A DNA stretch of 63,861 nt, counting the filler, from Rhabdomonas costata (taxonomy: Eukaryota): NCBI GenBank assembly GCA_019059605.1. It is 18 parts of 18 records of this genome, joined end to end, with 100 filler letters (N's around TTAATTAATTAA, not from the genome) between each part and the next. Parts side by side here need not be neighbours in the genome. Positions count along the whole stretch, not along the records: positions 1 to 3,459 come from JAHMHO010000820.1; 17 more parts are not named here. One strand, given 5' to 3'. Made by a program: the position numbers and the translations under genes. Of this stretch, positions 2 to 60,417 are shown piece by piece (within the stretch, counting starts at the first letter, position 1; the number at the start of each line of letters is the position of its first letter). The notes under the pieces were generated by a model, which made no database searches, was not told the origin of the DNA, and worked only from the letters and a program-made list of their open reading frames with translations.

Positions 2-3000
2 GTGTTGGGTTGCACGAACTGGCCGGCGCGGCACTACCTCAGCTTTGGATCGCTTGGAAGCCAACCCAGTCTCAGGGATACGTGATGAGGTAGATTGGCC
101 AGAGGAGCGGCTTTCTAGCCGAAAACTAACTGCCAAATTCTTTTGCGGTAATGAGGAGGCAGCACGTGCTGCTGAGTTGCTGGAGGGTACATTGGACATC
201 AGGGACGAGCCTGCCGCGACAGCAGGTTTCCCTTGTCCTCTGTGAGAATTAGTGACAGAGCCAACCAAAACAACCCCGTCCAAGTCTTCATCTTGGATTT
301 CCACTACCGGCTCACAGTTTTTCCTCTTTGCTGTGCAGGCCGCACCCTCATCTCGAGGTTCCTGAACCACCGTGGAAGATCCAGCGGCTGGAGTTGCCCG
401 CGCGGCATCCGACAGCACAAAGGATGTTATGGGTTTTAGCGAAGTCCCAAGCAACTCAGCCACAGTGGCACCGCCCATCTCGCTGCCATCATTGGTCTCC
501 AAATCTGGGCTACTGCGCTTCGCGGAGACACTGGTAATGCTTTCGCTTGAGTCATTTTCCCTTTCAGAGCTCCCACTCTCACTTCTGCTGCTGCTGTTGC
601 TGCTGCCGCTGCTGCTGCTGCTGCTGCTGCTGTGGGTTTCAGAGTCGCTACTGTCCTTGCCTTCAACCTCTTCTATGGGGTAGGGCAAGTTACCTTCGAC
701 TCCTTTGAAATCTCCGTTTGGCTGAAAACAAAAAAGGGAAATTGCTGATTCACTGCATTCCATTAAAAAAAAATACAAAAAACTCCTCAACCCAGCGTCC
801 ATATCATCCAGTTCATCAATTGGCGTCAGTGGCACCAAACCAAATGGCGAGCATTAAACTTTTACTACCAGCATTAATGTTTTCAGCCGTGTTTCGCCCA
901 TCGTGTTCGAAAATAGCACAAGACGACGACAACCACACAGAACCTGTGACTGAAAATCAGAGTGGCCTTCACAGACCTCAGCCACATCTTCATCCATTTG
1001 AACAGTGCAAGAAAAGGTTACTAAAAGCCAAACAGAGAGCATCGTACGAGGAGGAAGCTACCCGTTCAGTCTTCACCAACTTGCCGGAGCGTCTATCATG
1101 AAAACAACAGGTTTTTGAATAACTTCTTGTAAGGAGTTGAGAAAAGTGATGCACCACGCACTTAATTCCAAAACACTCCGTAAATTCTGTGCCGGCGTAT
1201 GCTAGCCCGGTCTTTTTGTTTTTAATAACGCTTCAGGCCAAGATAGGAAGCGCATTCTGCAATGTAAGGCACGTCGTACAGTGGTAAGCAGAGTAGTGGT
1301 AGAGCAAAAGCCTGAAACAATCTTGAGAAAGGACTCTTGGCCATATCTTCGCACCTCAGCAATTGATATGCTAAGGGCAACCTAACACGGCCAGAACATT
1401 GAGAAGAGGAAAAAAAGGAGAGTAAGATTGGTCAAGAAAAAAACTAAGTTTAAAACTATTGGTAAGTAACCCACTCAGCTGCAAAGTTAATAACAAGTTG
1501 TCTGCGTGACCAATAAGGTTCACAGAGGTTCACAGAAACGCTAAAAAGAATTGCCATCGTTATTTTGCATAACTTCAGTGAAAACCAAGGTTTCCAGCCT
1601 GGTAAATGGCTCTCGCACGTCGTCATTGCTGTGCTTCGGCGGATGACCACCCAAAAAAGGATTCAATCATGACATTCATCCATGTACTCGACTCTTGGGC
1701 AGCACAAAGTGCGTATACCGCAGCTCGCAACACATTCTTCCGAGCGCGATCAGATTCACTTGAAATGCCCTCTGAAGAAATGCGTAGCACGTCTCGTTCG
1801 ACCTCCTTTTCCGAACTCAGTGTTCTCCCTGTATATACTCAAGACAAATGCTTGTATTACATACCAGGTTACGTGCGGAAAAACTAGTTCCGTTTGCGAT
1901 TTAATATTCTTTCCAACTGCTTCGGAACAAAACCCGGAAATGCAACGATAGAAAAAGGAGCAAGCAAATCGATAAGGAAAAAATAAAGCAAATAGAGCAA
2001 ATCGATATGAACCAAAAATTACACCAATTCGTTGGAAGAAGAGTTGTACCAGGCAAAGTGTAACGCAGTAACGCAGCTGAAACAATCTTGAAAAAAATTT
2101 AGGACAAGGATTCTTGGCCATATCTTCGCACCTCAGCAATCGAGATGCTGAGGGCAACCTAACGCGGCCAGAGCACTAGGCAAAGGAAAAAAGGATAGCA
2201 AGATCGGTTCGCGAAAGAAAAAAATAGTGCTCAATGCAGTCTGCTACTTTGCACATTCATGTTTCTGAGGTCGAAACAGTATGTATTCACCCAATTCAGG
2301 TTCACTCTCACGAAGCTTTTGTTCTGCTTTTCTTGGGTGGTGGTGTGAAAGCCGTCTACAAAAATAGGAAACCTGTCTCTCAGTTCAGAAAGTCCGCTGA
2401 AAAAGACCACGACCGAGGAGAAATTCCTTTCCTCCCTTCTACAACGACCGAACACACCGCACAATCGTTCATTTGCTTTTCAATGAATCCCCAAACAGAA
2501 AAGGTTGTCGCCCCCCTCCAAAGATCTTCCCTTGGCGCTTTGGTGACAAAAAATCGCCCAGGCTGCGCTTGGTCCAGGGGATGTATGTGGTCCATCGGCC
2601 TCGCTCCCTTTCTTGGTCACCTCGGTCACCTTGGTCACTCTTGAGGATGAGACTCCGGGCATGCTCCTCCTCCGGGTTCATCCGGAACCACAAGAAGTGT
2701 GTTCGTTCCGGCCGAATTCCAGCATGGGTATCACACTACGCGGCTCCATGTCTGCTGTCCAGCCAGTCGGGACCCATACAAACTCAGCCAAGCCCATGAC
2801 TAAATCAACAGAGGCGAACGCTTAAGCTGAAGCGGTGGATAATTCCTCTCCAGTACAGTCTCTTGCGGCCTCGTCTGAGGCATGGTGCATCGTGTAACTG
2901 CCCCACTGCGCAGGAGAAAGCCCAAACGTCAGCTCGCGGTACACCGAGGGCATGTGTGGGAGCATTGCCAGCCAAGCCGAGGAGGACAGCAAAGGGTCTG

Positions 3001-3376
3001 CCAGCTCTGCAAGAGCACGGGCAAGTCGTTCGGCCCCTTCCAGCGGCGAAAGAACAGAAAATGCGCCGTGGGTGGGAAAATTGGTTCGCGAAAATGGAAG
3101 AAGTTCAGTCAGAGGGACACTCCATGACGAAGTGAGATGGAGTTTTGCGGCGCTGATCTGCTGCTGCGAAAGGTCCAGCAAGTCCGTCGGAAGGCGGAGC
3201 TGTGCCCTCCGTGCTCCACCTTCGTTGAAAAGGAGCATGCAAAAGCAGCAAAAACTCGAACAGAACAACGACCATAAAAGTTCCTTGTCAAATGGAATAC
3301 CAATGCCTTCTGCTGTCTCTCTCAGGACAATCTTGTCTCTACCTTGAGGCTCCTGTACGTATTTAAGAAAATCCAC
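2..3376 (-). CDS. Multi-exon hypothetical protein, partial, with a Ser-rich disordered region
   Basis: Minus frame is open over 2-721 behind a ttttgttttcag acceptor (…GKDSSDSETHSSSSSSSGSSNSSSRSESG…VVEIQDEDLDGVVLV…). Other coding-like stretches lie at ~1640-1830, ~2470-2700 and 2822-3376. Exon chaining is unresolved, so this may be more than one gene. Confidence 0.45.
1332..1395 (-). ncRNA. Candidate single-hairpin AGA-box (H/ACA-like) pseudouridylation guide RNA, copy 1
   Basis: RNA reads UGGCCGUGU-UAGGUU-GC-CCUUAGCA-loop-UGCUGAGG-U-GC-GAAG-AUAUGGCCA-AGA-GUC: lower stem, internal pocket, upper stem, and AGA directly after the stem. Confidence 0.65.
2109..2172 (-). ncRNA. Candidate single-hairpin AGA-box guide RNA, copy 2
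   Basis: Paralog of 1332-1395 with identical pocket strands (UAGGUU/GAAG) and AGA box. Differences: loop changes, a U-G to C-G upper-stem swap, and one lower-stem mismatch. Confidence 0.65.
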
Positions 3377-3459: not shown

Positions 3460-3559
3460 NNNNNNNNNNNNNNNNNNNNNNNNNNNNNNNNNNNNNNNNN
3501 NNNTTAATTAATTAANNNNNNNNNNNNNNNNNNNNNNNNNNNNNNNNNNNNNNNNNNNN
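3460..3559. other. Artificial contig spacer (44 N + TTAATTAATTAA + 44 N). Also starts at 7019, 10586, 14141, 17701, 21258, 24814, 28369, 31924, 35476, 39027, 42577, 46127, 49676, 53224, 56773 and 60318
   Basis: The same 100-nt block, containing a six-frame stop linker, recurs about every 3.55 kb. Confidence 0.99.
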
Positions 3560-6500
3560 GGGGGGTGTGGTGAAAAGTAGCAGAAGCCTGCAGCAGACTC
3601 CGACTGCTTCTTCATTGTTGGCATGCTGCTGCAAGGCCTTGCAGACTTCATCGATGACACCATGTGAGCACAGTACTGGAAGAATCTTGACATCCTTAGA
3701 AGCAAGAACAAAGAGAAGCCTGCACACCGCTGTCGTAATTTCTGGAAGGTGAGAAAGCTGAAAGAACTGCTGAATGTCTGCATGCTCAGGTTTGAAGCCC
3801 GGAGTCTTCTCCAAATCCACCAGACGCTTCAGCAGAACATCTTTCGCGGCCGCCTCTTGCTTGCGGGTGTCTTCCTCTCGCTTGCGGGCCTCTAGCTCAG
3901 CGTAACGGCGACGATCCTCCTCTTCTTTCTTCCGCTTCATCTCCTCAACCGAGCGTGCATCCATTGCATCCAACTCCTCCGATTGTTCCTTAGAAAAGCG
4001 CTGCAGCGAAATTAACGAAACCGTGTCGTCAAAACAACCATGACGGAAAAGCTTGTTGAGCTGGTAGATCTGAAGACAATTGAGCAGTAGCCTGATTTTC
4101 ACAAACCATCGCATTCCAATAACAGGAAATCCCATCAGCGACGGACTGTCGCTGAAGCTGCCCGTTGCCAAGGCGCGCAAGGCATTGAATACCTTTTTGG
4201 AACTTATGCTCTCATCTGAGCATGTGAATACCACAGCAAACTCAGAATTTGGAGCATTCTCAAAGGCCATCTTGATCTTGTCTGTCGTAAACAATTTCCG
4301 AATCTCCTTTTTCCAGTCTGGAATAAAACGATCTCTCGCAGCTTCAAGAAGCACCCCTTTCAGCATCAACTTCGCATAACTTTCCGGGCTGAAAACACGG
4401 AGATCAAGATCCGTACCCCCAAGAGCAGCCTTCAGCTTCTCCAAAACCTCTGCTTTGAACTCTGAAGAGAAGATATCCTTTGTTTCTTTCGCCTCCAGCT
4501 CCAAACCAAGCATAAGTTTCTTCTTTTTCATGGCTTTCTTTTCATCTTTAAACTGAAGCTGAGAGAATAGAATCTTCGGTCCCGGATAGATGTCTCCCGT
4601 GTACTCCGTAATTTGATTGTCACTCCTCCGAATGAAAAAGAGAGACATCCCAACTTTTGCGGACGCCTTGCCAAGCTTTCTGGAAAGGTATGTCAGAAGC
4701 ATATCCGTCGTGATTCTTTCCCCGTCCTCAGCCATGTTTGGATGACGCAGTTTAGGAGCTCTACCGAGCAAGCCCTTCCGTAAATACAATGAACCGAGCG
4801 CAGTGGTCTTACAGGGGCTGACAAACTCCACGTATTCTCCAGCAGAGGTCTCCACGCGAAAGAACCCATCACCCCGTTGCTGTGCCGGATCCCAACCTTG
4901 GCGAGGCTCTCGCCACCAAAGCGCAGATCCTCCATGAACAGAATCGATCACAAGGATAGTCTGAACACCCAGCTGAGGAGCAGTCCCCAAAACAGCACCA
5001 CGGAGCTCGTCAAGAAACAGAACGTTCTCGGGAGAGAACTCTAAGCAAGAGTCTGGAAGGAGCAGGAATCGAACTGAAGGTGGTTCCCCCGCAGGCTCGG
5101 GAGGGGTTTCCTCAACAACTTCTGCCTGCGGCTGAGTTAGAGCTTCATCCCCCACAGCTGGAGGCTGCTCAGCCGCCTTGGCCTCGCCATCCTCCTCCTT
5201 CTTCTTCGTCTTCTTACTTTTTTTCTTGGTGTCTTTCTTGTCCTTGGGCTCCGACTCAGCTGCCTTTGCAGAATCTTCCTTGGCTGCTTTCTTGGGGGTA
5301 CCCTTCTTCTTGGCCGCTGCGGCTTCCTTCTTTTTCTGCTCTTCCTCCTCACGCCGGCGCTTCTCCTCCTCCTCTTCCTGCTGTCTGCGCCGCTCTTCCT
5401 CTTCCTCAGCTTTTCGGCGGGCCTGCTCAACGGCTTCCTTTTTCAGGCGCTCCTCTTCTTTCCATGTCTCCGCTTCCCTTTTCAACTCCGCCTTTGTGGG
5501 GCCATCATACATCACTCCCGAGAGGCTTCGACAGCTAACATAGACCAAAAGCTGACAGTCTTCTTTGCGTGCAGCAGCGACTTCGCGCAGAATATTTTCC
5601 TTGGTTGGCGATAGGTCAGGCCCAGAGGAGGGGAACATCAGAGTGACCGTGTATCCCAGCTGTGTTAAAACCACGGCAAGTTCCCTGCAGTCATCCTCTG
5701 AGTGCAAGGCCACGCGCAATCGTTCATCTTCAGATGAGGGAATCCCAATCACAATCGCCCGAAGCTGCGTTTTCGCTTGGGTTTCTTGCGGGAACTTGCG
5801 CTTCATATCTGCAACTCGACGTGCTCGCGCCCGCTGGCGCTCGCGAGCCTCATTTAGGAGCTTGTATCGCCTCCGACCCAAAAAGAATCTGATATTCTTC
5901 TGAATCACGATGCTTGCATATGTTCTGGAGGTGCTGTTGAGGCGTGAAGCCATCTCAGACAGACAAACAACTTCGTCCGTGGCAGGATCGGAAAAGGCAG
6001 TAAACAGCATCACCATCCTCGAGGAGCTCTCACCGTAAAAAACCGCTCGTTGCAAAAGGTTGCTGATTACGGACGTCGGAAAGCTCAGCTTTGAAAGCTT
6101 TTGAATAGCTCGTTTACATAGCTGAGGGTGACTGCCGACTTGGAGAAGTGCCTGTTCAAAACTAACTAAGGCACGATTAACACACGCCTTGGCCTTCTCC
6201 GCAGCTCCAAAGTTCGATTTTGGGCTGGCCCACTGGAATATCGTGCGATCGAAGGAAGAGTGGGCGTGTTTGTGGTATCCCGCCATATCAAACACGGAGA
6301 GAGTGGCATCGCCAAGCTTGACGACAATAATCTGATGTCCTCGGCAAGCCTTGAGCTGAGCAGTGCGTGTCCGAGTGTCCTGCAGCACATCGTGGATGTA
6401 AAAAGAGGTTGTTGTGCGCCAGCAGTTTTCCGGAATGAGATCAAGGCTCAACGAGTCGTCAGCTGAAGCCCTTGCGCTCTTCCAAACCACGTGGTTCAAG

Positions 6501-6765
6501 TTCTGGATCTCTTTCTGGTTGAGGGCGTCGTAAATCTTCTCTTGGTACAGCCCGGTATCGTCAGGACCCCCATATATCAACAGGTAGGCGAGTTTGATAT
6601 CGTTGTTCTCCCAGCGCTTTTCTTCTTCCCCAGAAACAGGCACTTTTTCGTCGGCAGTCTTCGTTTCGAGGCCATACGGGAGTTCCACATACAGCCAAGT
6701 AGCGCTCCACTCCGGCCCGGTTTGACAAATCCCGTTATTCCCATTTCCAGTGGCATCCATAAGCA
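3560..6765 (-). CDS. Large protein, partial: degenerate kinesin motor-like domain + IQ motif + inactive caspase-like (C14) domain with a charged insertion + helical/ARM-like C-terminus
   Basis: One ~3.2-kb open exon after a ttttcttttgtag acceptor. Kinesin-like motifs: LYQEKIYDAL, RGHQII, LSVFDMAG, VNRAL, SVISNLLQRAV…SRMVML. IQ motif: IQKNIRFFLGRRRY. Caspase-like: LRAIVIGI…DDCRELAVVLTQLGY…PTKENIL…LLVYVSCRS…LVIDSVHGG. Confidence 0.75.
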
Positions 6766-7399
6766 CCTACAAAAGAAAAACCACAAAACGCTCGACAAAA
6801 AGACGCGGTGCGACCTGGTCCCAAATCAACGATTTAGATTCAGCTCAAAATGCAACGGTTTCCACTGTTGTGTGGTTTCAGGGTTGTACTGGTCTCACCA
6901 AGTACATCCCCAAATGTGCGTGTGTTTTGCTCTTCGAAAAGGAAGCGGCACGAAACCCAAACAGGCGCACTTCTATTCTTGGGACCTCTGGAGTTTTCTC
7001 CAGGACCGCGGAACACAGNNNNNNNNNNNNNNNNNNNNNNNNNNNNNNNNNNNNNNNNNNNNTTAATTAATTAANNNNNNNNNNNNNNNNNNNNNNNNNN
7101 NNNNNNNNNNNNNNNNNNGGGGGGGTGGTATCCAAAGGAGGCGTCTCCTTTAGTGTCAGAGTGGTACACTCGCCTATGATTTGTAAGAAATTTCACGAGT
7201 CCGAGAATTGCACAAATTTTTGCAAGTGGAGCGTGGTATTAGACACGTTTTAATAGAAGTATTTGGATGATTTAGCAAAGACAGCTGTGAGCAGCATTCA
7301 GATAGTGGAAGTAAGTACCCCGGTCCCGCTGTTAGTGTTGCCATTCCAGATAGAAGCGAGAGAGTGGGTTGGGTTCTTTGGAGTTTTTCCAGACATTTC

Positions 7400-9740
7400 C
7401 CACCTCAATCACTAATGTTATTGCCGTTGTGGATTGGTGACACCCAATTTATGGCGTTACTAGACTCTGGATCATCAGACTCTTTTATAAGTCAGGAGTT
7501 GGTCCAGAAATTTCGTTTGCAGAGGTACCAGTTGCCGCAGAAGCTTACAGTGATGGTTGCTAAAGTGAAATGACTTCCAGTGAAGCACTTCGTCCGAGTT
7601 GTCGGAAAGTTGGGTTCCATGCCTATCAAAATGTTTTTTATAGTGATCAAGACGGCAATCACAGTAGTGCTGTGTAATCCCTTTAAACGAGGCTGCAACC
7701 TCAGATTCATTGGAATCGCATGAATGTCACGTTGTTGAGAGGAGGAAGAATGTACGACATCCAGGAGCTTCCAGCGGTAGATGCATTTCGAACCACATGC
7801 CCCGCTACAGTAGTGCTGGATGCAGAGCAAGGGGAATTTGCTAAGGTGAACCATCTGATTGCTCCACTGCAGGAACTTTAGATGTCGTTTCCACCGAGCC
7901 CACAATAGCAGTGGAGTGTGGAGGCGACGTCCCGTGCATTCCAGACGTCCAGAGTGTTGAAGTCTTGTTGGAAATCATTCAACTCTGTGCCTAAACATGT
8001 CCCTCGCCTTATGGTTTATGTGTGCTGTTCGTTCCAAATGCCAACGGTAAGTTGCGTCTGTGTGTTGATTACAGACCGCTTAATGCAATTACGGTTACGA
8101 TGCGTACAATATACCACAAACCGACGAGATTATTGATCACGCGTGAATGCAAAGTGGTTCCCGAAGCTGGATTTGCGTGCTGGATTCTATCGTATTAGAA
8201 TTTTTCTAGAGCATGTGTGGAGGAAGGACTTCAAGACAAAGCATGGTTAGTTCCAATTCAGATTCATGCGTTTTTGGTTGCGCAATGCCGCAGTAACGTT
8301 ACANNNNNNNNNNNNNNNNNNNNNNNNNNNNNNNNNNNNNNNNNNNNNNNNNNNNNNNNNNNNNNNNNNNNNNNNNNNNNNNNNNNNNNNNNNNNNNNNN
8401 NNNNNNNNNNNNNNNNNNNNNNNNNNNNNNNNNNNNNNNNNNNNNNNNNNNNNNNNNNNNNNNNNNNNNNNNNNNNNNNNNNNNNNNNNNGATTTTGTTC
8501 CACGCATATAAGTTGGAAGCACATGTGGAGGCAGTGGTGGTGTTGTACCGGATATTAGACCGAGAGAAGCTGTATGATAATCAAGAGAAGTGAATGTTTG
8601 CCCAACCGCGTGGATTTTTTGTGGGGAGAAATGGGATCAGACCACAACAGAGGAAGTTAATGGCAGTGTACACGTGGCCTCAGTTACGTAAACCTACAGA
8701 TGTGAAAAGTGTCCTCGGGCTATGTGGGTTTTACTAGAGAGCTGTGGAATATTACACCACAGTGGCAGTCTTACTGACGGATTTATTGAAGAAGAAGAAA
8801 AATTGTGTGTGGTGCGAATCTCAAGAGACGGAGTTTCAGAGACTGAAAGCCAGACTTTTGAAGCACAACGTGTTAGTGGTTCTAGACGTTAAGAAGCCAA
8901 TGGTGCTTCACACCAATGCTTCAGAGGTGGGTATTGGAGCGGCGCTATTGCAGCCAGTGGAAGATGGCAAGATGCATATGGTGGAGTGTCGCTCGAGAAC
9001 GTTGTCCACAGCGGAAAAGAATTACACTGCTAATGAGATAGAAATGATAACGTTTGTGGACACGTTGTAAAAATGGAGGCATTACTTTGCCGGGTTCAGA
9101 TGTCAGAGTTCACACAAATAACTCGGAGCTGTGCTATTAGCAAAAGAACTCTAGTCCGTCTCCAAGTCAATTAAGGACGTTGGAAAGACTCCAGATGTAT
9201 AAGCAAAAGATTGCTCACATTCCAGGAAGGCAGAATGTCGCTGCGGATGCCATCTGTAGGCACACACTGGACAAAGTAAGCTTGGGAGCGATGGAATTGG
9301 AGGTTTTTTGCGACACTGAGATTTGAATTACCACTCTGTGCACTACTGAAGGTAGCATCAGATGTGGAGCCAGACGATTTTTGGCCAGATTTATGGTGAA
9401 TGGTGTGAAGAGGTACTTTAACGTGACTACAGCGGAGCTTTTGGATCATACATATTGGCACCATGGCAAATTTTGTAGTCGGTGAAGATCGTGGTACCAA
9501 TCCAGAGTGAACAAGACTCAACCGCAGCAGATCAATATAAACGTCCAGAACGGCCGCCCTGATCAATCTGACTTACACGTTCAAGAACATCAAAAGAAAG
9601 GTACGAGCTTACGTGCGTACCTTTGATGTTTAACAAAGATTCAAAGCGGAGCACCATTTGACAAGATGCAACACCCAGGTTTTTGAGCTGCCAGTAATGA
9701 AATGCGAGTCTATATCGATGTATTTCGTTTCCATGCCTGC
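7400..9740 (+). mobile_element. Decayed Ty3/Gypsy LTR-retrotransposon pol (protease-RT-RNase H-integrase N-terminus)
   Basis: Protease ALLDSGSSDSFI; RT remnants (KWFPKLDLRAGFY, FRFM…LRNA); RH VLHTNASEVGIGAAL…AEKNY; integrase VRAYVRTFDV*QRFK and CESISMYFVS. Many stops and frameshifts; internal gap 8304-8490. Confidence 0.92.
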
Positions 9741-39149: not shown

Positions 39150-40260
39150 GGGCTTTTACCATAGGTTCTTCACGCAGTTTGCGAATGTGGCAACCACCAT
39201 CACCACTTTGCTGGAGAAGAAGAAGCTGTTGTACTGTCGACCAGCCTAACAGCAAGCATTCGTAGGACTGAAGTCCTACCTTTTTCGGTATGTCGTCTTG
39301 GCCTTTCCGTAACGTAGGAAACCATTCATCCTCCACACCGACGCTTCAGACACCGGAATCGGAGCAATGTTGTGCCAATCTGATGTCTCTAATCTCTTTC
39401 ACCTGTTTGTATGCACCTCTCGGAAGTCGAATAAACATGAAGTTAATTACACCACGAACGAAAAGGATCTAGTCGATGTAGTCTATTATTGGAAGCACTA
39501 CTTCCATGGTGCCAAAGTCAAAGTCTTAACCGACAGAACCTTCAGACCATGGCGAAGTCGAGCCCCCGCCAGGTTTGTTGGCTATATCGATTGCATGAAT
39601 TCGATTTGACCATCGCACACATTCCGTGTAAGTCAAATGTTGTTGCCGAAATCTTCTCCCGCATGCGCGAGCAACAAAGGAGATGGGGGACACCTCCCCG
39701 CCTACAATGCGTCTTGTTGGACGAATGGCTGGACAATTACCGACAAGATCCCGAAATTTTTTCGACCCCAACACCAACGAGCTTCACGATGACAAGCGGA
39801 AGCACTACAAGTTTGGCCGACTTTGGGCCGATGAAAAAGTCTCGTGCCGAAGAATCTGGTGAATGATATTATCACAGCGCCTCACGATATAATTGTTGTG
39901 GGTCACTGGGGATTCATCAGGCAGTCATCAGTATCCAACGCCGGTGCGCCAACACATTGATTCATGCGACGTCTGTCCAAAGCTGATCACCACAACCCTC
40001 GAGGACTTATGGAACGAGTTTCAATTCCAACCCAGAAATGGAAGTCAATCGGCATAAACTGGATCGTCAAGCTCTCGCAGATTCAGCTGGAGGTGATGAC
40101 CTACGACGCGGTGCTGACAACCTCATCCATGCATGTAAGAAGGCGTCGGCAATTGACACAGCCGAGCATTTCCTTTGGCATGTGGTGATGTACCACGGCC
40201 TCCCCCTCTCCATCATCTCCCACCGAGTATCAAGATTCATGTGAGCCTTTGTGGAGACTT
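39150..40260 (+). mobile_element. Decayed Ty3/Gypsy RNase H-integrase fragment (apparently a different family)
   Basis: EVNYTTNEKDL…WKHYFHG…TD; LHEFDLTIAHIPCKSNVVAEIFSR; PTQKWKSIGINWI; YHGLPLSIISHR. Frameshifted. Confidence 0.88.
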
Positions 40261-42341: not shown

Positions 42342-42576
42342 CTACTCCGCGCTGTGCCTCTGCTTCCTCTTGATCACCTTCCGGAGCTTCTTGGCGCGAA
42401 CCTTCCGCTCTGCGGCGGTGATCTGCGCAAGCAAGGGTCGCTTCCACGGCCCTGCGCCGGGCTGCACCGTCTCCCCTGCCGCCGCAGCTTGGGCGTCAGC
42501 CCTGTCCTTCTCGTGCTGCACACGGCGCTTCGTCGCGGCCTTCATCTCCAGCGCCCGCCGGCGCATCCAAACCACC
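42342..42576 (-). CDS. Basic C-terminal exon of an unknown protein
   Basis: GC-rich frame …RRVQHEKDRADAQ…RAKKLRKVIKRKQRHSAE*, open from the contig end. Confidence 0.5.
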
Positions 42577-58882: not shown

Positions 58883-60417
58883 CTTGGAATTGAAAGAAAA
58901 GCCTCAATTTGTCTGCCCAAAGACTGAGCACGCGGGGGGGGGGCGACAATCACCTCGGTGCCGAAAACTGACAAACAGCAGCGAACCAAAAACCAGACAA
59001 TGACGAGCAACTCCGGTAGAAGGTGCGATGCAAGAACTCCGGGAGAGTCCACACAATTTCTCGTTAGTTTTGCCACACGTCGCCGCTCTTGTCATTTATT
59101 GCTAGCCCCACCTAAAGTGAGAGTGTTCAACATTTACTCTAAAGGAATAGGTGTTGTCTGAAATAGAATAATCGATGTCAAGAATTGTGCTGTGGAAATT
59201 GAAAATTGTTGACGGTTACAGGTATAACAGCGCGCGGAAATGGCCACATAATGACTCGTTTTTCTCACGTGACGCGCGACTTTATGGTTTTAACGTAATT
59301 TTTCAGCCTGTTTCACCAATTAAAACAACTGGAAACAAATTTTGAGTTCCATGACCAGTTTTCACCGAACTGTGGTTTCGGCTGCAATTATTGCCCACAA
59401 CATGACCCGCGCAATATAGGTGTGCTGGTTTTCATCAGTGAACAAAGGCAGATACGTCCAATTCATGCTCGCAACCACACCGATTCGAAAATGTGGGAAT
59501 GCCACTCGATTTGATGCAGAGTTTTCCGATTCAGGCACTGATTTTCAACAAAGACCTTTCGGGTAAAACTGCTGGGTGGTACTTCGGCGTTAACCTTGCA
59601 GCCAGGTCTTTGTCTTCCCGGTTGAATCCGTATGTTTGTATCAAGTGCAGAGACCAGGCCAATGAACGTGAAATGAACAAGAAATTCTTTTTTCTCACAA
59701 ATGAGGGCCCATCATTGAGGTGGTGACTCCCCTCCCGGCCTTTGTTTTTTTTTCACCAGGTCTGAGCGGGAGGCCAGCAGAGAGAGTATTTTGGTGCTGA
59801 AATCACAAGGGGGGTGCCGACCAACCAAAAGTTTGTGTTATGAACGCAAGGCCACCAAAGTAAAGGTCAAAGCCCACGAATTTCACGAAAAAGAGGTCCC
59901 GGATCCTAACCGGGTATGAATTTGGTTGAGAAAGCGTTGGTTTAAAGACGGCATCCAACACTACCATTTTGGGCAGCAGACTTCGCGGTGAACATTAAAC
60001 AGCGACTGCGTCTGAACTAATTCGTCGAGAAGACCACACAGTGTGCATAAAGTATCCAGTACAAAGTGGGCCCAAAGGGGTTATCAATGAACGAGGCAAC
60101 TCATTGGTATCACACCACTCAAAACTGAACAAGGTAGATCGGTATCCTGCGACTTGCCACGCCACCACGTTACAAATCATTTTGAACCATATCAGAAGGG
60201 CATTCGCAATCCAGCAAGTACAAGTGCAGTCCTCCCAGATCGTCACCGGAGCCTTGTGACAGTTCACTTCCGGGAAGGACGGCGGAGTTCTTCCTCTCTT
60301 CAACCTGCTGGAGGTACNNNNNNNNNNNNNNNNNNNNNNNNNNNNNNNNNNNNNNNNNNNNTTAATTAATTAANNNNNNNNNNNNNNNNNNNNNNNNNNN
60401 NNNNNNNNNNNNNNNNN

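Follow-up and report, generated by a model that had tools for sequence, protein, structure and literature searches.

The first contig of the 63,861-nt stretch of the Rhabdomonas costata genome analysed here (assembly GCA_019059605.1; the whole stretch is called the window) carries two related 62-nt hairpins on its minus strand. We interpret them, with a confidence slightly short of even, as two paralogues, isoforms of one AGA-box (H/ACA-like) guide RNA for pseudouridylation that has a single hairpin and belongs to a euglenozoan, each lying in an intron-like cassette. The duplication of the element, its structure, the asymmetry between the strands, the differential conservation of its parts and the lineage of the organism are all direct observations. 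Because the window is a series of linker-joined contigs, adjoining contigs are not genomic neighbours, and the true genomic context of the hairpin pair is the first contig (window 1-3459, 3.46 kb).

A repeat search detects the pair as a direct repeat on the minus strand (1315-1415 versus 2092-2192; 101 nt, 83% identical, spacing 777 nt). Gapped blastn self-alignment gives a longer match, 1308-1443 versus 2084-2220 (138 columns, 80.4% identity, E 6e-28), and a unit of about 137 nt. Combined with pairwise alignments, these results delimit copy A at 2077..2220 (minus strand), made of a T-rich 5' flank, the hairpin, a tail and the 14-mer CAAGATTGTTTCAG, and copy B at 1312..1443 (minus strand). Blastn self-comparison of the first contig yields no further homology: the sequence between the two copies is unrelated to the unit, and other self-matches do not exceed 24 nt (E 1.9). 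Homology between the copies stops a few bases from the AG of copy B. At up to 3 mismatches, the 26-nt core of the repeat occurs twice in the 63,861-nt window (expected 0.00), and a covariance model of the hairpin, run with filters off, finds no third copy in the window, the two copies scoring E 1e-24 each and the next match E = 2.

Folding and the covariance model give both copies the same architecture. Hairpin A (62 nt, 2109..2170, minus strand) consists of stem I (2170-2166 paired with 2119-2115), a 5' pocket strand (2165-2156), stem II (2155-2146 paired with 2138-2128) capped by a loop (2145-2139), a 3' pocket strand (2127-2120), the AGA trinucleotide (2114-2112) and a 3-nt tail (2111-2109). 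In hairpin B (62 nt, 1332..1393, minus strand), the corresponding elements are stem I (1393-1389 with 1342-1338), the 5' pocket strand (1388-1379), stem II (1378-1369 with 1361-1351), the loop (1368-1362), the 3' pocket strand (1350-1343), AGA (1337-1335) and the tail (1334-1332). Stem I, UGGCC/GGCCA, has 5 bp and is identical in the two copies, with AGA directly after it. The internal strands measure 10 nt on the 5' side and 8 nt on the 3' side, stem II has 10 bp with one bulged U, and the loop has 7 nt. An earlier examination of this DNA, hereafter the sequence-only reading, had described two paralogous minus-strand hairpins with lower stem, internal pocket, upper stem and AGA, and both copies do fold in this way, with a length of 62 nt.

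The folds are more stable than expected from composition, and they are so on one strand. Folded as 86-nt stretches, the two copies reach -30.4 kcal/mol (z -2.9), a value equalled or beaten by 2 of 200 shuffles, and -33.7 kcal/mol (z -4.8), equalled or beaten by none of 200. By raw energy, the two hairpins rank 59th and 24th among 2,065 segments of 81 nt, from both strands, with AGA near the 3' end. On the minus strand, the whole units fold at -43.5 kcal/mol (z -3.0) and -41.6 kcal/mol (z -4.6), and in neither case is any of 200 shuffles as good, whereas the plus-strand units have z values of -2.2 (5 of 200 shuffles as good) and -0.8 (41 of 200). For both units, the fold is significantly better than shuffles on the minus strand only, in agreement with the strand originally assigned to the structure.

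Divergence between the copies is unevenly distributed. In a global alignment, the hairpin differs in 5 of 62 columns and the 5' flank in 16 of 53 (Fisher p 0.003). In the 3' flank, 13 of 32 columns differ, 12 of the 13 belonging to one indel, and the p value of 1.6e-4 obtained for the hairpin against both flanks is inflated by the single counting of these indel columns. Two of the five hairpin differences are in the loop, one follows AGA, one changes a C-G pair of stem II to U-G and one lies at the outer end of the 5' pocket strand; a variable loop and a variable wobble position had both been noted from the sequence. The accompanying claim that pocket and box are invariant holds for AGA, for the 3' pocket strand (8 of 8 nt identical) and for the eight inner nucleotides of the 10-nt 5' pocket strand, but at position 2 of the latter copy A has C and copy B has U. 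None of the 23 predicted pairs is changed on both sides, and this two-sequence comparison holds no true compensatory change. Because the hairpin is more conserved than its flank and the minus-strand units beat their shuffles, the data point to constraint acting on the minus-strand RNA. Neutral duplication of a local segment of non-coding DNA with a palindrome-like stretch would agree with the presence of just two copies, in the same orientation, on one 3.46-kb contig. The uneven divergence, the strand-specific folding and a stem change that keeps its pairing argue against such a duplication, which we consider extremely improbable.

The lineage of the organism was assessed from a protein encoded on an adjoining joined contig, where a full HMMER search with an intron-free open reading frame (ORF) of 1069 residues (3560-6766, minus strand) retrieves 53 homologues. 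Among the ten best clusters looked up, a Euglena gracilis transcript protein is the best (37% identity, E 2e-84), and the next ones come from two prokinetoplastids and three diplonemids, including Diplonema papillatum. Judged by this homology, the organism belongs to Euglenozoa and is nearest to E. gracilis while clearly not being that species. The homologues are mostly proteins of about 2000 residues from Euglena, prokinetoplastids and diplonemids, apparently a family restricted to Euglenozoa; the ORF itself runs to the contig end and is probably partial. A word-based protein search and a protein atlas gave nothing for it, and no Pfam domain was found in it; across eight ORFs of the window, Pfam recognised a kinase fragment only.

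A guide of this class is plausible because the organism is a euglenozoan, a group in which single-hairpin AGA-box pseudouridine guides are the norm. The pseudouridine guides of Euglena gracilis are reportedly single hairpins with an AGA box. The accessible parts of two reports describe such guides as the standard form in trypanosomes and as present in Euglena (PMC2613932, PMC6698659). Small nucleolar RNA (snoRNA) genes of Euglena are described as clustered and typically present in multiple isoforms in the available text of PMC7671301, and more than 200 snoRNAs are reported for Euglena in that of PMC6366073. In E. gracilis, the nearest sampled lineage, multiple isoforms are thus on record, and two are seen here. 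The Euglena genes form clusters, whereas the isoforms described here are 777 nt apart with unrelated sequence between them and form no tandemly repeated cluster.

The gross geometry of the hairpins agrees with that of the trypanosomatid guides, insofar as excerpts of PMC2613932 and PMC6698659 describe these. Shared features are a single hairpin of 62 nt with a 5-bp stem I, a two-stranded internal loop and an upper stem, a 7-nt loop, AGA past stem I, 13 nt between the upper stem and AGA, and the euglenozoan lineage. The ranges given for trypanosomatid H/ACA-like RNAs in the excerpted text of PMC2613932 are a size of 57-91 nt, a stem I of 5-8 perfect bp, a 5' pocket strand of 5-11 nt, 13-16 nt from the target position or stem II to AGA and a loop of at least 5 nt. 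The values found here (62 nt, 5 perfect bp, 10 nt, 13 nt and 7 nt, respectively) all lie within them.

A number of observations nevertheless weigh against a guide. A geometric fit alone is weak evidence, because 1.46 million T. brucei sequences fit the crude model (PMC2613932, in the portion available). In the same portion, AGA is usually found one to three unpaired nt past stem I and 3 nt from the 3' end, and 3-7 perfect bp are asked for in stem II next to the pocket. In both copies described here, the spacer between stem I and AGA is 0 nt and the U bulges after 2 bp of stem II; adding two U-A/U-G pairs would lengthen this part of stem II to 4 bp, but the distance to AGA then drops below 13. 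The pocket is also self-complementary, with seven closing pairs, four of them G-U. In terms of minimum free energy (MFE), the closed form reaches -29.2 kcal/mol against -23.7 kcal/mol for the open-pocket form in copy A, and -31.3 against -21.5 kcal/mol in copy B, so that closure is favoured by 5.5 and 9.8 kcal/mol, with pair probabilities of 0.81-1.00. In the closed form of copy B, an AGG/A internal loop alone remains of the pocket. A UCU just 5' of stem I can moreover pair with AGA. Searches for relatives point in the same direction: Rfam gives no match at gathering score in the whole window and, at E up to 10, two irrelevant weak hits in 1200-2400, and a pattern of pocket and box with free upper stem has no hit in metagenome contigs. 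Nor was a C/D snoRNA partner with conserved rRNA complementarity found on the first contig, where there is one weak 10-nt match and where an 11-mer complementarity scan returned mostly chance matches. The hairpins described here lie in an intron-like unit, in contrast to the mixed C/D and H/ACA clusters of trypanosomatids. The proposed assignment to the AGA-box guide class is partly supported: geometry, conservation, strand and lineage fit, whereas the self-pairing pocket predicted for the free RNA, the missing AGA spacer and the bulge 2 bp into stem II set these hairpins apart from trypanosomatid guides.

For the free RNA, folding predicts an almost uninterrupted, imperfect stem (about 24 bp) that has small internal loops and a terminal loop of 7 nt, and this shape also suits a different role, that of a precursor of a silencing-type small RNA (microRNA-like or small interfering RNA-like) or of a regulatory stem acting in its closed form, for instance by masking a 3' splice or branch region. 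The conserved arms, the variable loop and an outer helix that takes in the acceptor-like AG would be in keeping with such a role. On the other hand, G-U accounts for four of the seven pocket-closing pairs, whereas stems I and II consist of Watson-Crick pairs except for one U-G in copy B, and because of this pattern of two stems with a weak middle a guide fits better than a Dicer substrate. To our knowledge, no silencing-type RNA class has been described in euglenids, although we made no search aimed at one, and this also counts against a silencing precursor. We regard the silencing or regulatory role as quite unlikely.

Each hairpin is followed by an acceptor-like site, as the sequence-only reading had stated. 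The 14-mer CAAGATTGTTTCAG is exact 3' of both hairpins; its start lies 9 nt past AGA in copy B and 21 nt past it in copy A, and its AG ends 22 nt and 34 nt past AGA, respectively. In both copies, part of this 14-mer pairs with the 5' flank to form an outer helix that is present in the MFE as well as the centroid folds. In copy A, CAAGATTGTTTCAG (2077..2090, minus strand) contains the 3' arm (2090-2083, RNA CAAGAUUG) and the acceptor-like YAG, and the 5' arm CGATCTTG (RNA CGAUCUUG; 2199..2206, minus strand) pairs with the 3' arm over 8 bp, including one G-U, within the 144-nt unit. In copy B, the 14-mer (1312..1325, minus strand) likewise provides the 3' arm and the YAG, with the 5' arm CAATCTT (CAAUCUU; 1424..1430, minus strand) pairing over 7 bp with AAGAUUG (1324-1318) within the 134-nt unit.

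Two minor features are found near these elements. A stretch of 24 nt within the ORF upstream of the hairpins (3070-3093) resembles the 5' flank of copy A (2193-2216, including the start of the outer-helix arm; 79% identity, E 1.9) and may be a chance match or the remnant of a third unit. By eye, a perfect 7-nt inverted repeat (1310-1316 / 1232-1238, minus strand) has its first arm at the acceptor-like AG of copy B and its second arm about 70 nt further downstream, which would allow the stretch just past the copy B unit to form a stem of its own.

The hairpins lie in about 2 kb without a recognisable coding exon, because the flanking frames end near 2822 and start at about 853. The minus-strand ORF upstream of the hairpins is the one that ends near 2822, the downstream open frame extends from about 853 to the contig end, and the ORF lists contain no recognised coding exon between 860 and 2820. 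The downstream minus-strand ORF includes a long CAG/CTG-type trinucleotide run (569-643), which corresponds to a poly-serine tract. GT candidates upstream of the units come from a by-eye reading only. In Euglenozoa, a polypyrimidine-AG may equally be a spliced-leader acceptor. With these elements, the unit is suggestive of an intron-like cassette and represents a candidate intron. It shares with the intron-encoded snoRNAs of animals, plants and green algae a hairpin placed a few tens of bases 5' of an acceptor-like site, one per unit; it differs from them in that the host is a predicted one, whose AG may instead serve spliced-leader addition.

The main rival to a guide starts from this same unit. 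The 137-nt element could be a euglenid nonconventional or intermediate intron, or its source resembling a miniature inverted-repeat transposable element (MITE), in which case the hairpin would be structural and have no guide function. In the available part of PMC3935182, euglenid nonconventional introns are described as having a helix that joins the intron ends. Position +1 is a purine, the CA at +4,+5 pairs with the TG at -7,-6, inverted repeats are found close to the termini, and a MITE-like origin is proposed for these introns. The same part gives a preference for a pyrimidine at two places, the last base of the intron and that of the upstream exon, and for a downstream exon that has a purine and a C in third position. 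The units described here share with these introns the end-joining helix, of 7-8 bp in both copies, inverted repeats near the ends, a short length, a non-conserved position and, in copy B, the CA/TG offsets. With its ends set at 1433/1313, a choice made to fit, copy B begins with G, its CA at +4,+5 pairs with TG at -7,-6, a pyrimidine precedes the intron, and a purine and third-position C follow it. This leaves the last-base pyrimidine as the only listed preference that copy B lacks; homology between the copies also stops a few bases from the chosen ends. Since the CA/TG rule served to choose these ends, the other agreements with intron features are weak evidence.

Other features of the unit fit this rival poorly. 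The last base would be A, a purine, in both copies, and the 3' end is a polypyrimidine-CAG of conventional style. Copy A has CG/TG instead of CA/TG, a purine before the intron and no third-position C. As to a MITE, the arms are inverted-repeat-like, but a target-site duplication is not apparent, the 63.9 kb contain 2 copies, and neutral decay would not give 8% divergence in the hairpin against 30% in the 5' flank. An intron or MITE whose hairpin is purely structural therefore seems unlikely to us, while being the most serious competitor of the guide.

If the hairpins are guides, their expression, processing, protein binding and target are what we infer from the features above. They would be transcribed within a longer minus-strand precursor, and each would be released from a cassette of about 120-145 nt whose ends are joined by the 7-8-bp helix and which may be an intron or a processing unit. 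The RNA would then be trimmed to about 62-65 nt, with its 3' end 3 nt past AGA, and bound by a complex of the Cbf5/Nop10/Gar1/Nhp2 type. Opening of the internal loop would allow the 3' strand GAAGAUAU to pair with the target just 5' of the uridine and the 5' strand (..UAGGUU) to pair 3' of the base after it, placing the uridine about 14 nt from AGA for isomerisation.

A further hairpin of related shape is present on an unrelated contig (61576-61656, plus strand). It has two stable stems, a large internal loop and AGA directly after, folds at -36.7 kcal/mol, ranks 8 among the 2065 AGA-ending segments and may be a second guide-like candidate.

A guide of this class would be expected to pair over 3-9 bp on either side of a uridine in the rRNA, snRNA or spliced-leader RNA of its own organism. 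Targets were first sought in ribosomal RNA, using borrowed eukaryotic ribosomal DNA (rDNA) from 62 contaminant loci in bacterial assemblies and 107 metagenome loci (169 loci, 528,935 nt). These cover the small subunit (SSU), 5.8S and the first ~2,270 model positions of the large subunit (LSU), as annotated on four contigs, together with the motif-bearing surroundings of the LSU 3' domain. The outcome also speaks against a guide: none of the conserved-core sites in the 169 borrowed loci pairs with both strands of the pocket. Four pairing criteria yield 9, 5, 10 and 7 hits for the real pockets, compared to shuffled means of 6.5, 4.0, 11.9 and 7.2, and the real count is reached by shuffles in 15, 19, 34 and 27 of 60 trials, so that the proposed match of the pocket to rRNA gives no more hits than shuffled pockets do on this borrowed rDNA. 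The hits near the LSU 3' domain sit in variable expansion segments. A semi-conserved LSU stretch, with 5+4 Watson-Crick pairs in 3 loci, was rejected as a target, showing no excess over chance.

The specific LSU target near helix 38 put forward by the sequence-only reading fares no better. All 19 borrowed sites contain (A/G)ACCUA with a U two bases upstream, and the bases further upstream are part of a covarying hairpin. The 3' pocket strand pairs over 4 bp in one of these 19 sites, the only one to reach at least 4 bp, and over 2 bp or fewer in the other 18. Because the upstream bases covary, this target would be possible only with the right stem sequence in this organism. The U that this target implies is found, in a yeast-like contig, 992 nt past the start of the ITS4-site motif; by yeast numbering, this position is not known to be a pseudouridine. 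As a separate observation, the loop region of copy B (1362-1372) has an 11-nt same-sense identity with the 5' end of LSU rRNA near the ITS4 primer site, which copy A lacks and which we take to be chance.

A stronger lead than the LSU site comes from a T. brucei primer for the gene of U2 small nuclear RNA (snRNA) (PMC11894013, PMC10781861). In this primer, eight nucleotides are perfectly complementary to the 3' pocket strand; U-C comes next, and the four bases after it pair with the 5' pocket strand, three of them as G-U, which gives a total of 8 Watson-Crick pairs plus 4 pairs. In a control of 1.06 Mb (both strands), three sites have eight Watson-Crick pairs and none of the three has at least 4 pairs on the other side. 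In analogy to T. brucei, the 5' end of U2 snRNA is the best candidate target that our search suggests; the 8-mer is presumably the extreme 5' terminus of the T. brucei U2. Two points tell against the guide: the matching sequence is that of another organism, T. brucei, and no statement that the implied T. brucei U2 uridine is modified was found in the accessible text of PMC6698659, the map itself being in its figures and supplements. The same text gives 34 pseudouridines for T. brucei U2, guided by single-hairpin snoRNAs (PMC6698659).

The lack of an established target after this search would suit an 'AGA-like' RNA, that is, an RNA of H/ACA-like shape, independent of Cbf5 and without a pseudouridylation target. 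Such a class is on record, having been defined in trypanosomatids (PMC2613932, in the excerpts available). It is, however, poorly defined and confined to trypanosomatids, and it is for borrowed rRNA only that a target is found to be absent here; we consider this alternative highly unlikely.

If they are correctly identified, the hairpins add guides of a known euglenozoan type from a lineage distant from the sequenced Euglena, a modest addition in itself, and the wider interest is limited to their packaging and to the U2 lead. Their packaging in units with paired ends and an acceptor-like site could show how euglenid guide genes duplicate and whether nonconventional introns carry functional RNAs, and, if the pocket is complementary to the 5' end of U2, dense pseudouridylation of snRNAs as in T. 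brucei would be extended to another branch of Euglenozoa. A more elaborate scenario combines the two aspects. The unit would be a self-contained nonconventional or intermediate MITE-like intron, its paired ends defining excision, that carries an AGA-box guide to the extreme 5' end of U2, with guides spreading by intron- or transposon-like duplication. We hold this scenario to be improbable, and if such an intron-plus-guide cassette is real, the origin of euglenid nonconventional introns would be linked to the dispersal of snoRNA genes.

The remaining observations concern the window as a whole. Its joints (3460-3559, 7019-7118 and so on to 60318-60417) separate about 18 contigs of some 3.45 kb, in roughly descending order of length, and consist of identical 100-nt linkers made of 44 N, a 12-nt all-frame stop and 44 N; a run of 187 N is found inside a contig (8304-8490). 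Most contigs have only G and T in their first ~10-15 nt and only C and A in their last ones (e.g., 3560-3574, 7119-7133 and 42563-42576). Their polarity is opposite to that of telomeres, and these ends look like the residue of a degenerate amplification primer from an amplified low-input library. Finally, three plus-strand ORF fragments (7271-7573, 8738-9067 and 39447-39863) are retroelement-like by eye, with an aspartic-protease-type DSG motif and stretches resembling RNase H and integrase.

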